Below are positions 51,374 through 54,539 of a stretch of 64,000 nucleotides of DNA, in pieces. Positions within the stretch are counted from its first letter, which is position 1; the number at the start of each line of letters is the position of its first letter. A model generated the notes under the pieces. It saw nothing but the letters and a program-made list of their open reading frames with translations, ran no database searches and had not been told where the DNA came from. The DNA lies in assembly GCA_965198235.1 (NCBI GenBank), contig OZ240248.1:2784001-2848000 (forward strand). The letters are read 5' to 3'. This DNA is from Candidatus Poribacteria bacterium. Its GTDB lineage: Bacteria; Poribacteria; WGA-4E; WGA-3G. Made by a program: the position numbers and the translations under genes.

Positions 51374-52873
51374 ATGGCTCATTTTTTTTCTGAAGCAAGC
51401 CGGACTTTCAGTGAATACTTGCTTTTACCTAACTTAACGACGAAGGATTGTATTCCTGAAAACGTTGTCCTGAGAACCCCCCTGGCGAAGTTTAAAGTGG
51501 GGCAACAACCATCTCTGGAAGTGAATATCCCGTTTGCTTCTGCAATCATGCAAGCTGTTTCGGATCACAATTTGGCAATTGCACTCGCAAGACAGGGCGG
51601 GATATCCTTTGTTTATGGGTCCCAAAGTATTGAAGAGCAGGCAGCAATGGTCCGAGCAGTTAAAAACCACAAAGCGGGTTTCGTCGTCAGCGACTCAAAT
51701 TTAAAGTGCGATAGCACCATAGCAGATGTCGTGAAACTAACCGAAGAAACAGGACACTCGACTATTGCTGTAACCGAAGAGGGTTCGTCTTCAGGAGAAC
51801 TACTCGGACTGATAACGGATAAGGATTATAGATTGAGTCGAGTGGATTTAAACGCTAAAGTAAGCGAATTGATGACTCCGTTTTCCCAACTGATTGTTGG
51901 TCGAAAAGGAATTACGATTGAAGATGCCAACGACCTCATTTGGAAACACAAGATAAATTGTTTACCGATTGTTGATGAAAACCGTAAACTGGTACATTTG
52001 GTCTTCAGAAAAGATTACGATGACCATAAGAAGAATCCCCTTGAATCAGTAGATTCCCATAAAAGACTTGTCGTCGGTGCCGGAATTAATACAAGAGATT
52101 ATAAAGAAAGAGTACCAGCACTGGTAGCAGCAGGTGTCGATATTATTTGCGTTGATTCTTCTGAAGGATATACAGAATGGCAATCAGACACCATTCGATT
52201 TATTAAAAATACGTACGATGATACTGTGAAAGTGGGCGGCGGGAATGTAGTTCACGGAGATGCATTTATGTATTTGGTAGAAGCCGGTGCTGATTTTATA
52301 AAAGTAGGTATCGGTGGAGGTGCTATTTGTATAACAAGGGAACAGAAAGGCATTGGTTGTGGGCAAGCGACTGCCGTCATTGAAGTCGCTCGGCAAAGGG
52401 ATTTGTATTTGAAGGAAACCGGTGTTTACGTGCCAATTTGCTCAGATGGCGGTATATTCCAAGATTATCATATTGGTTTGGCTCTTGCCATGGGTGCTGA
52501 TTTCGTGATGATGGGCAGATATTTTGCAAGATTTGATGAAAGTCCAAGTAAAGTAAGAAAATTGGGTATGAATACGGTGAAAGAATATTGGGGAGAAGGA
52601 ACAAAGCGAGCCTCCAATTGGCAACGCTATCACGAGGGCGGCGGTTCAGAATTACTGTTCGAGGAGGGTGCTGATGCATACGTACCATACGCAGGAAAGA
52701 TGGACGATAATTTGAAAACGACCCTCGCAAAAATCCGATCCCTCATGTGTAATTGTGGGGCGATATCCCTACCGGAATTTCGTCAAAAAGCGAGATTCGT
52801 ATTAGTCTCTTCAGCCAGTATTCGTGAAGGCGGTGTTCACGATATTATCCCAAGAACGACGCAAGATGGGTAA
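51374..52873 (+). CDS. guaB: IMP dehydrogenase
   Basis: [11 protein letters not shown] pair, [37 protein letters not shown]. Confidence 0.93.
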
Positions 52874-52946
52874 AAAGTCAATCATGAAATGCCGAAAACT
52901 TCTCCTGTTTCTTTTTCATGGCATTTTTTTTCTAAAGGGAGAACAA

Positions 52947-54539
52947 ATGAAAACTTTCGACAACAAAATTGCACTTAATCTTGACGATGAGGCAGAAGTC
53001 TCCGTCAAAGGTTTCATCGCGCCGATTGAATACACCCAATACAATTTCCACGTGGAGTGGGACGAGTTGGCAAACTTTCGAGCTGCTGAACCAGAAAAAC
53101 AGTATCCCACATCCGTTTTTCAAGCGTTTTTCCCATCGGAACCGGTTTCGATCGGTGAATGTTGGGAGATTCAAGAAGAGGACACGCTAACGTTACTGAA
53201 GCAACTTCATCCCAACCCACGCCTGAAGCTGACCATTGACTCAGGAGATTCGTATGGTTTGTGGGCATGTCTGCGCGCTTACAATGACGGACTTACTGAA
53301 ATTGTGTTCCGTATCCATGCGGAATTCGTCATGGAAAGCGGTAAGTTTACCCCGTCACAATTTGCTGGACATCTGGTTATTGACCGGGTCGAAGAGAAGG
53401 TCGTCTCTTTCAAAATGTACGTACCTCCAACGACACTGAATTTCGATGCCGGTTGGACGCAAGAAGATGGTGGAACTTTTGTGGAAATCGGCTTTTGTCC
53501 GCAGATGGAACTTGCTGTTGGCACACAACCGCATGATGTCGAATTCACAGCGTCAATCACGCAAGAAGAAGCCGAACGCGCCCTGATATCGCGTTCCTAC
53601 AAGTTTCAGCAAATCAACTGGGTATCGCTGGAGGAAGCATTGGAAATGGCACCCGCAGAACAGAAACCGATTCATGTCATCTCAGTAGATGGACCGCTCT
53701 TCGACGAGGCGTGCTGAGGGAGTGGCAAAGGCCTGAGGGCAGGTGAGCTCTCCGAAGATCGAATCATAGCGTTCTTGAACGAAAACTTTATCAACACGTG
53801 GGTCCCGAATGCGGAATTAGGACGAACACCGAGTTTGCGAGAACCGATTGCGAGGCGACGCGAGCGCGAAGGTAAGACGTTCGATACAACGCACGCCTTG
53901 GCGCAGGCAATTATAAAAAGTTGGAAAAAAGGGTCACCGGTGGACTGCTTGGTTATCTCGCATGAGTTTGAACCGATGGGCAGCGTAGACTACAATGAGT
54001 TCCCTGAGAACTTAGGGGAATTTGACGATGACACAGAGGCTTACCTATTCTTTCTTGAGTCATCCTTGGAAGGAAAACGTCCTGGACTGGGCGACCTTAT
54101 CCTTACCCGTGAACAGCCTTCACAGGAGGTGGTAGACACTTTTCGCACCCCGAAGGTAGCACACCAGGACTACACTGTTGTCGTAATTGATGCCACAACC
54201 TTTGAAAGAGGTGGCACGCTCACCATTAACATCCACGTCGGTAGAGACGATGCCATAGGAATATTCCATCTCCTCGACGGAGACAGTAAACTTCCAACAG
54301 AAAAAGCTCCTGATGGCATTGATCCCGCAGTATGGAACGATCAAGAAAGTGAGGAATATAAGAAGGCATTTGATGCACTTACCAAAGTATGGGGTATATT
54401 CCCCGATGAAACTGGGCGAATTACGTACCAGTTCGATCGCGGTCAACGCTTTAAATTGTGTGCGACTGGAGATCAATGGGGTGGAGTAGGGACCATAAAT
54501 GCTTTTCACGCAAGAATATCTGTAGAGCCAGCAGACTGA
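52947..54539 (+). CDS. Selenoprotein N (SELENON)-like protein, Sec at TGA 53715-53717 (530 aa read-through product)
   Basis: Two ORFs in one frame separated only by TGA; junction FDEAC-U-GSGKGLR..LS...IIAFLNENFINTW; FRIHAEF and TPSQFAGH motifs; RBS before ATG 52947. Confidence 0.88.
53718..53752 (+). promoter_or_regulatory. Bacterial SECIS-like hairpin
   Basis: GGGAGT pairs with GCTCTC; upper stem GCCTG/CAGGT closes an AGGG loop (53736-53739) 18 nt after the UGA. Confidence 0.72.

Follow-up and report, generated by a model that had tools for sequence, protein, structure and literature searches.

A Likely Selenoprotein N-Type Selenoprotein, Encoded across an In-Frame UGA, in a Candidatus Poribacteria Genome

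INTRODUCTION

A 64,000-nucleotide stretch of the genome of a Candidatus Poribacteria bacterium (assembly GCA_965198235.1, contig OZ240248.1, positions 2,784,001 to 2,848,000 of the forward strand; this whole stretch is termed the window, and its own numbering is used throughout) contains two consecutive open reading frames (ORFs) separated by a TGA codon. The question raised by this locus is whether the TGA is a stop codon or is decoded as selenocysteine (Sec) within a single gene and, in the latter case, to which family the encoded protein belongs. An earlier examination of the letters, referred to here as the original prediction, proposed a bacterial homologue of selenoprotein N (SELENON), a muscle-disease protein. 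In the portions available of the cited papers, SELENON is described as having Sec within an SCUG motif, an EF-hand and an endoplasmic reticulum membrane anchor (PMC8584023), and a 2026 review terms both what it does biochemically and the part played by its Sec "enigmatic" (PMC12936836).

RESULTS

A single reading frame with one internal TGA

Both ORFs, at 52824..53717 (297 amino acids) and 53775..54539 (254 amino acids, TTG start) on the plus strand, were present in the ORF list of the window at the coordinates reported in the original prediction. As their starts differ by 951 nt (3 × 317), the two ORFs are in one frame, and reading of the sequence detected a sole interruption between them, the TGA at 53715-53717, directly 3′ of a Cys codon. 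Translation from the ATG at 52947 with TGA read as U generated 530 residues with a single internal TGA, at residue 257. The context of this residue was ...KPIHVISVDGPLFDEAC-U-GSGKGLRAGELSEDRIIAFLNENFINTW..., exactly as had been written earlier, and the N-terminal flank ends in PLFDEAC. Full-length homologues were colinear over 98 to 99% of the 52947-54539 product, and a search of the genome returned the locus as one match, marked "1 TGA". The TTG at 53775 is not preceded by a purine-rich Shine-Dalgarno sequence and the downstream part has no ATG of its own, in agreement with the earlier remark that the second ORF has only a TTG start and no clear ribosome binding site (RBS). The FRIHAEF and P.QF.GH-type blocks that had been noticed upstream of the site were located at residues 121 to 127 (FRIHAEF) and 136 to 142 (PSQFAGH).

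Conservation of the TGA across the family

Conservation of the TGA across Poribacteria, a point raised by the original prediction, was borne out when 71 distinct homologous sites, drawn from the window's genome and its relatives, were compared. TGA was present at 61 sites, GGA at 5, GGC at 4 and TGG at 1, while TAA and TAG were never observed. The residue directly before the site was Cys in 70 of the 71, and the flanks were conserved as ...D[DE][SA]C-U-G[ST]GK.LR.... Five paralogues in the window's genome each had one TGA at the identical codon, the motif being ACUG in the window gene and SCUG in four of the five copies. The TGA was always at the same codon after the Cys across paralogues that are merely 35 to 60% identical.

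Family matches were detected in 95 of 121 genomes sampled from the phylum, with up to 23 matches per genome. Among the 150 matches listed (935 further matches lay beyond these), exactly one in-frame TGA was present in 141 and none in 9. A search with a divergent N-terminal half detected the family in 45 of 61 genomes and found tandem arrays of seven to eight copies on single contigs. Arrays of seven to eight SELENON-like genes, nearly all with one in-frame TGA, were located at G049:C38:59852-71832, G009:C53:9743-21933 and G060:C98:67739-78532. Judged from these sequences, a single selenoprotein family has undergone a lineage-specific expansion in Poribacteria.

A word-index search with the joined protein returned 262 relatives at an E value of ≤0.001; among the 120 listed, 15 covered at least 90% of the query and the rest were pieces. 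An exhaustive search of 1.84 billion cluster representatives detected 438 relatives at ≤0.001, with 282 at ≤1e-10 and 66 at ≤1e-30. In many of the matches among the best 150 of these 438, the alignment stopped at query residue 256, which coincided with the end of the protein, or opened at residues 263 to 264, which coincided with its first residue. Gene calls whose last residue is the Cys of ...D[DEQ][SA]C accounted for 85 of the first 278 database homologues and are the signature of a conserved in-frame stop codon obeyed by gene callers. The named members seen were all annotated as "hypothetical protein [Candidatus Poribacteria bacterium]", save for one "BrnA antitoxin family protein" consisting of a C-terminal half. 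Standard annotation splits this gene into two hypothetical proteins, as had been foreseen.

At the Sec position, proteins crossing the site among the first 278 homologues had Cys in at least 16 cases, Gly in 13 and Thr in 1; there were also Trp forms, such as P0049, which escaped the residue-counting pattern. The Cys forms (P0131, P0132, P0152, P0157 and P0162) have motifs of the types ...DESC-C-GSGK... and ...DEAC-C-ATGK... and constitute, with the TGA forms, a classical Sec/Cys pair. Replacements other than Cys were Gly, encoded by GGA and then by GGC, in L033 to L038 and L044 to L046, Trp in L085 and P0049, and Thr in P0045. In a quick tree of 64 rows (from the 71 genes, 7 that were duplicates or had <200 residues before or <100 residues after the site in the locus were left out), the Gly forms were placed within one orthologue clade (16 rows: 7 TGA and 9 Gly) by several independent changes, and a Trp form was sister to a TGA form. 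Because of this placement, Sec is read as ancestral in the tree sampled and as having been lost repeatedly through single-base changes. From the recurrent replacement of Sec by Gly within a single clade, it would seem that redox chemistry of the kind proposed below has been abandoned in some copies.

Some relatives exhibited other architectures. In P0064, no stop codon separates the C-terminal half of one gene from the N-terminal half of the copy that follows it, and some polypeptides may accordingly hold two SELENON-like units and two Sec residues. In L092 (an open frame of 1,141 amino acids), the TGA stop of the first gene directly abuts the next ATG. P0132 and P0215 contain an extracytoplasmic function sigma-factor domain (Sigma70_r2/r4) joined, with a hydrophobic segment in between, to a SELENON-like domain whose last residue is the Cys ahead of the presumed Sec, an arrangement that may represent a redox-sensing sigma/anti-sigma fusion. 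Leucine-rich repeats precede the SELENON-like domain of P0267, and P0188 has an 800-residue N-terminal extension.

A bacterial SECIS-type hairpin follows the TGA

The SECIS-like hairpin of the original prediction, which had been given no coordinates, was placed inside the coding sequence, with a 5′ arm of GAGGGC (53735-53740), a loop of AGGUGA (53741-53746) and a 3′ arm of GCUCUC (53747-53752). It begins 20 bases past the U of the UGA (18 nt downstream of the UGA), and its loop begins 23 nt after the UGA. The consensus for a bacterial Sec insertion sequence (bSECIS), as given in the available part of PMC13188914, consists of an apical loop of 3 to 9 nt, a stem of 4 to 16 bp, a G in the first two loop positions, a UGA-to-loop distance of 16 to 37 nt and a minimum free energy (MFE) of ≤−7.5 kcal/mol. 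The window hairpin agrees with this consensus throughout, having a 6-nt loop with a G at position 2 followed by G and U, a 6-bp stem, a distance of 23 nt and a value of −8.6 kcal/mol, the last being the MFE of nt 16 to 45 after the U.

All of the TGA forms can fold a short hairpin with the 5′ arm in Leu-Arg-Ala codons and the 3′ arm in x-Leu-Ser codons; the loops were GGUC, AGUU or AGGU, with AGGUGA in the window gene. In a first alignment (28 sequences), a 7-bp helix was paired in 99.0% of 196 cells, compared with 31.6 to 68.4% when the helix was slid. Three of the seven pairs changed on both sides, with G-C to C-G three times (Leu to Phe and Ser to Cys) and C-G to U-A twice, and none of 500 shuffles reached the observed pairing or covariation score. 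In a second alignment (40 sequences, eight of them Gly forms), a 6-bp helix was paired in 98.3% of 240 cells, and three of the six pairs changed on both sides. The slid helices of both alignments were paired in 31 to 80%. Compensatory changes thus seen were G-C to C-G, C-G to U-A and G-C to A-U, some of them through amino acid changes on both arms. Alignment A4 has the eight Gly-form rows and A3 has one Trp-form row; the window gene uses the register with the 6-nt loop and hence counts as four of six pairs in A4.

Codon usage was similarly biased. The Arg at +7 was encoded by AGG or AGA in 59 of 59 sequences, compared with 30% of Arg codons elsewhere in the family genes, codon +11 was CTC in 54 of 59 (compared with a family background of 18% among Leu codons), and the Ser at +12 was never encoded by AGY. 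The 59 distinct TGA segments had a mean z of −2.1 relative to synonymous recodings, with 33 of them below −2. Covariation and codon bias indicate that the hairpin after the TGA is under selection in this family.

A longer hairpin that included the UGA (columns 2 to 12 with 28 to 38) was rejected, as its pairing (85.0%) was similar to that of shuffles (85.2%) and there were no double changes. An Rfam search of 53600-53900 produced two chance-level matches only (E values of about 8 to 9). A SECIS-free control was sought among Cys forms; the one locus obtained, L063, keeps a GGUC-loop hairpin in the homologous codons (n = 1). The DNA sources for Cys forms were a scan of genome contigs with P0131, yielding one poribacterial locus, and a metagenome scan with alignment A2, yielding two loci, one of which was this Cys form; a metagenome scan with P0131 produced no match. 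In the GGC (Gly) forms, the hairpin loop lacks its G, being AACU instead of AGUU.

Selenocysteine machinery

All four components that the original prediction had named (selA, selB, selC and selD) were found in the window's genome above curated thresholds, with scores of 592 bits for selA, 348 bits for selB, 360 bits for selD and 78 bits for tRNA-Sec (Rfam). ARAGORN identified a tRNA-SeC with the anticodon TCA that adjoins selB. Across the phylum, selB was above the cutoff in 119 of 121 genomes. The selD gene, located outside the window (G000:C1:3115227-3116150, minus strand), contains one in-frame TGA, and the selenophosphate synthetase of this genome is probably itself a selenoprotein. Within the window, three sub-threshold matches to the tRNA-Sec model (32 to 36 bits, compared with a threshold of 47) were detected at 132-215, 555-627 and 660-736 on the minus strand; these most likely reflect an ordinary tRNA gene cluster at the window start.

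Relationship to SELENON

In a protein-language-model atlas, whose matches are leads without E values, the cluster nearest to the Cys form P0131 was a eukaryotic one labelled "Selenoprotein N" (0.93; 207 of 256 features), and the same cluster was nearest to residues 23 to 415 of P0010 (0.93; 208 of 256 features). This cluster has 55 members, of which Chordata are the commonest, and ranked ahead of two bacterial clusters labelled Planctomycetota.

A second line of evidence came from P0311, an ORF of 284 residues in an ENA assembly, which was the weakest (E value of 0.015) of 32 matches to residues 190 to 333 of P0270. None of these 32 matches carries a name, and P0311 alone is eukaryote-like. 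Its sequence contains ...ILFRIHAEFQL..., about 95 unmatched W-rich residues and then the SELENON site motif quoted in the original prediction, with W at the Sec position, followed by ...KFVSTW. Because of this motif and the intron-like insertion, P0311 appears to be a piece of a eukaryotic SELENON gene whose translation crosses an intron and renders TGA as W. A profile built from bacterial sequences only (A1) matched P0311 with 141.5 bits (E value of 1e-35 in a space of 5.77 billion sequences), while the best of 200 shuffles scored 1.6 bits. The match consisted of two colinear blocks, one aligning profile positions 106 to 206 with residues 2 to 106 (78.1 bits) and the other, which straddles the Sec position, aligning positions 244 to 318 with residues 202 to 276 (61.6 bits).

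BLASTP of the window protein against P0311 detected 48.1 bits for residues 108 to 183 and 47.8 bits for residues 216 to 285, and the window protein was about 40th of 185 matches to P0311. Among the homologues collected, the best matches to the N domain of P0311 were with a different bacterial clade, of the P0295/P0296 type, consisting of N-terminal halves ending in ...WGALDDQSC, at 67 to 78 bits. Summed scores for several full-length Poribacteria-type proteins (107 to 111) overlapped with those of this clade (115). The P0295/P0296-type clade carries an N-terminal membrane segment. In the word-index searches for a named SELENON, the joined protein returned poribacterial matches only among the 120 listed, and residues 295 to 668 of P0132 returned 12 close relatives, with no named SELENON among them.

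The spacing of residues after the site was also shared. In the accessible text of PMC3541580, the myopathy mutations G463V, R466Q and R469W/Q fall in the UGA-adjacent hairpin of SELENON, and Gly, Arg and Arg would, if Sec is residue 462, be at positions +1, +4 and +7. These correspond to Gly258, Lys261 and Arg264 in the window protein, that is, to Gly at +1, a basic residue at +4 and Arg at +7. Membership of one family with SELENON is strongly, though indirectly, suggested by these comparisons, and true homology is likely; the window protein would be either a bacterial member of the SELENON family or a very near relation of it.

Domain architecture and predicted fold

An AlphaFold2 model was built on P0010, a natural full-length Gly-form homologue, from a 72-row alignment and was mapped onto the window protein by pairwise alignment. 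P0010 has 52% identity to the window protein by BLASTP and 59.8% over 493 aligned positions, and its model had a predicted local distance difference test score (pLDDT) of 87.4 and a predicted template modeling score (pTM) of 0.71. The order of elements was a signal helix, a beta-rich domain, a thioredoxin-type unit (b-a-b-a-b-b-a) and a beta sandwich. Mapping of the thioredoxin-like elements placed beta1 at IHVISV (242 to 247), Cys256-Sec257 in a loop and the start of helix 1 at Gly258, followed by beta2 (INTWVP), a conserved SPVD loop before beta3 (VDCLVI), beta4 and helix 3. In P0010 itself, the site is two residues ahead of helix 310-317 and maps to Cys256-Sec257 and Gly258. In the model, the Cys-Sec pair is at the N terminus of helix 1 of a thioredoxin fold.

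The beta sandwich spans about residues 385 to 526 when mapped from P0010. The extra C-terminal domain of roughly 150 amino acids in the original prediction came out at about 146 in the mapped model. The best sandwich match in a Foldseek search of the PDB was the ColH collagen-binding domain 3jqw (target-normalised TM score of 0.66, root mean square deviation of 2.7, 114 columns). The sandwich is duplicated in many relatives, and relatives of about 400 amino acids carry two copies. As modelled, it resembles bacterial collagen-binding and pre-peptidase C-terminal modules and is an add-on of the poribacterial branch.

Start site, neighboring genes and coordinates

The start at ATG 52947 was backed by relatives whose homologous Met opens the sequence M-x-T-[LF]-x-[ND]-K-I with no hydrophobic leader before it; in L059, a stop codon is directly upstream of this Met. 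Because relatives of the subgroup start there without a leader, the window protein probably has no signal peptide, and from this conserved ATG the earlier statement to that effect was correct, no hydrophobic segment being present. A signal peptide starting from an upstream in-frame ATG (52884 or 52866) was considered and judged improbable. ATG 52866 overlaps the guaB stop codon, and the hydrophobic stretch behind ATG 52884, LLLFLFHGIFFL, is encoded in frame by a T-rich spacer (52874-52946) between guaB and the selenoprotein gene and is not conserved in relatives. Clear signal peptides are present in many other paralogues, as is an N-terminal transmembrane segment in distant members; the family is predicted from these sequences to include exported forms.

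The upstream neighbor is guaB (IMP dehydrogenase, 1e-104), and a convergent polysaccharide deacetylase gene (1.7e-32) lies downstream. A search for terminator-like sites returned none. The features of the locus are listed in Table 1.

Table 1. Features of the predicted selenoprotein gene, in window coordinates
Feature	Coordinates	Strand	Basis
Shine-Dalgarno-like AGGGAG	52936..52941	+	5 nt ahead of start codon; sequence read
Single coding sequence, SELENON-like selenoprotein (predicted), 530 codons plus stop	52947..54539	+	Translation with TGA as U, one internal TGA
N-terminal beta-rich domain and linker helices (predicted), residues 1-240	52947..53666	+	P0010 model; holds FRIHAEF and PSQFAGH
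Thioredoxin-like fold (predicted), residues 241-378	53667..54080	+	P0010 model secondary-structure order; Foldseek 3ira, 7tkv
Cys256 codon TGC, vicinal partner of Sec	53712..53714	+	Cys before site in 70/71 homologous sites
UGA read as selenocysteine, Sec257 (predicted)	53715..53717	+	Site conservation, Cys homologues, paralogues
Bacterial SECIS-type hairpin	53735..53752	+	bSECIS criteria, MFE, family covariation, codon bias
C-terminal beta-sandwich domain (predicted), residues 385-530	54099..54536	+	P0010 model strands 432-556; Foldseek 3jqw
True stop codon TGA, without hairpin after it	54537..54539	+	Sequence; homologues end here

DISCUSSION

The evidence presented here points to a single gene whose product is very probably a selenoprotein, judging from the conserved TGA, the Cys homologues, the SECIS-type hairpin and the complete Sec machinery; the 530-residue protein with Sec257 in a vicinal Cys-Sec pair that was originally predicted is upheld by the same observations. 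Taken as a whole, the locus is likely to encode a SELENON-type selenoprotein with a Cys256-Sec257 redox centre in a thioredoxin fold. We infer actual Sec insertion, redox chemistry, a substrate and kinship with animal SELENON, with redox catalysis of the kind proposed below being fairly probable. In the proposed mechanism, SelB and Sec-tRNA(Sec) would read the UGA as Sec, guided by the hairpin at 53735-53752, and the thioredoxin-fold domain would present Cys256-Sec257 where thioredoxins carry CxxC. This pair would cycle between the selenol/thiol and selenenylsulfide states, and oxidised thiols may be reduced, exchanged or isomerised or, alternatively, peroxide-type oxidants detoxified. The substrate would be held by the flanking domains, the N-terminal domain in particular, and the C-terminal sandwich may tether the protein to a polymer.

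Like animal SELENON, the window protein has a Cys-Sec-Gly motif (SCUG in SELENON and in four paralogues of this genome, ACUG in the window gene itself), the spacing of Gly, basic and Arg residues after Sec already described, and an RNA hairpin directly 3′ of the Sec-UGA, this last likeness being one of description that does not imply RNA homology. Unlike animal SELENON, which relies on a SECIS element in the 3′ untranslated region, the window gene uses an in-frame bSECIS, and its protein lacks the EF-hand and membrane anchor, has an extra C-terminal sandwich and has many paralogues per genome. The SELENON motif has been likened to the redox centre of thioredoxin reductase (PMC8584023, in the part available). 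The Gly-Cys-Sec-Gly centre of that enzyme also has adjacent Cys and Sec followed by Gly, for which a selenenylsulfide is expected, but belongs to a flavoenzyme, in which it occupies a flexible tail at the C terminus, whereas the motif of the window protein is at helix 1 and there is no flavin domain. Bacterial thioredoxin-fold selenoprotein families have UxxC or CxxU spacing, whereas the Cys and Sec of the window protein are vicinal. The likeness to these families (thioredoxin, peroxiredoxin and DsbA-like; PMC13188914, in the part available) consists of the fold, an in-frame UGA with a bSECIS and Sec/Cys pairs. The best Foldseek neighbors of the thioredoxin-like part were proteins of the Thioredox_DsbH/DUF255 type (3ira and 7tkv); the likeness was weak, with query-normalised TM scores of 0.16 to 0.17, 13 to 14% identity and no sequence-level match.

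A number of observations weigh against this interpretation. The SELENON link is an indirect one, through the atlas cluster and the unnamed P0311. No EF-hand was detected by Pfam in the whole protein (E value of ≤1) or in either half, and no hydrophobic segment that could form a membrane anchor is present from ATG 52947. The homology claim of the original prediction drew indirect support from the atlas cluster, from the P0311 profile match, which reaches to either side of the site, and from the SCUG motif with its residue spacing; the EF-hand and the anchor are missing. Searches of Pfam, NCBIfam and PDB sequences with the joined protein produced no match, not even to a thioredoxin family; Pfam likewise produced none for the joined protein at an E value of ≤1 or for its two halves, and the family profile matched no PDB sequence. 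In poribacterial relatives, Sec gave way to Gly, on three or more occasions in a single clade, or to Trp or Thr, and not to Cys, which is unusual for an essential catalytic residue. The hairpin of the window gene considered alone had a z of only −1.29 relative to synonymous recodings, 9.7% of which were as stable. Since the 91-nt fold around the TGA was not more stable than dinucleotide shuffles (z = +0.45), the significance of the hairpin rests on the family comparison. Finally, the neighboring genes, guaB and the polysaccharide deacetylase gene, give no clue to function.

Several alternative explanations were weighed. That the TGA is an ordinary stop codon, leaving two genes or a broken pseudogene whose similarity across the stop is historical, is extremely improbable. 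The splitting of the locus by standard gene callers, the use of TGA as the true terminator of the gene and the statistically unexceptional hairpin of the window copy would all be consistent with such a stop, but TGA was present at 61 of 71 sites and was never replaced by TAA or TAG, holding the same codon after the Cys across the divergent paralogues. In addition, Cys occupies the site in other lineages, the downstream part lacks its own ATG or RBS, covariation and codon bias keep the hairpin right after the TGA, and the genome has the complete Sec machinery. Reading of the UGA as Trp or Gly without selenium, through reassignment of the code or near-cognate read-through, draws on relatives in which the codon is GGA or GGC (Gly) or TGG (Trp) and is scarcely credible, as the listed family matches hold at most one in-frame TGA (141 of 150 with one and 9 with none), the window gene itself terminates with TGA, a dedicated tRNA-Sec is present with selA, selB and selD, and Cys forms exist.

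Decoding of the UGA as Sec being the preferred explanation, the resemblance to SELENON could still be convergent, the protein belonging to an unrelated thioredoxin-fold family with Cys-Sec-Gly. The lack of a curated alignment and of E values for the atlas matches, together with the missing EF-hand and membrane anchor and the extra C-terminal domain, would fit such a convergence. It is nonetheless unlikely, as the profile match to P0311 extends beyond the redox motif in two colinear blocks of about 100 N-domain residues and about 75 residues around the site, and two very different bacterial members were independently nearest to the same eukaryotic Selenoprotein N cluster. The original prediction had also raised host-symbiont gene transfer. 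Recent acquisition from a sponge host, that is, eukaryote-to-bacterium transfer, would be in keeping with relatives named Candidatus Poribacteria, which are sponge-associated, and with SELENON being best known from animals. This idea is not favored, and such a transfer is very unlikely, because other bacteria also have Sec and Cys forms (the Planctomycetota-labelled atlas clusters and diverse metagenome proteins), an in-frame bacterial SECIS is used, there are five paralogues in this genome, and P0311 is closest to a different bacterial clade, its N-domain block matching the P0295/P0296 type best, with the window protein only about 40th of 185. The occurrence of the family in 95 of the 121 phylum genomes, with up to 23 matches each and tandem arrays, likewise argues against recent transfer.

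A full-text literature search, with most subscription journals outside its coverage, detected no link of selenoprotein N to Poribacteria and no bacterial SELENON. Structural work may already have drawn on a bacterial SELENON homologue; searches of the PDB and of papers returned none. In the portion available of a 2026 review of prokaryotic selenoproteomes (PMC13188914), "SelN" is absent, and the text strings matching "selenoprotein n" or "selenon" have other meanings. What appears to be new here is a SELENON-type protein in bacteria that would be decoded by a bSECIS, with another architecture and a large lineage-specific expansion; an earlier mention elsewhere is possible.

In the accessible parts of PMC12936836 and PMC8584023, the Sec redefinition element (SRE) of SELENON is a small UGA-adjacent hairpin that resembles a bacterial SECIS. 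A tentative possibility, on balance doubtful, is that eukaryotic SELENON descends from the bacterial family and that the SRE is a molecular fossil of a bSECIS, kept in codons +6 to +12; the hairpin would have been retained after the gene moved into a lineage using SECIS elements in the 3′ untranslated region. If so, the poribacterial tandem copies, with one Sec each, would be a natural library of SELENON-type catalysts. The finding bears in any case on the origin of SELENON and of its UGA-adjacent hairpin. Genes of this kind are systematically cut in two when these genomes are annotated in the standard way, and the prokaryotic selenoproteome would gain a large family that is now misannotated. 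If the relationship is true, a soluble protein from bacteria that shares the Cys-Sec centre would offer a tractable system for structure determination, redox chemistry and substrate trapping.

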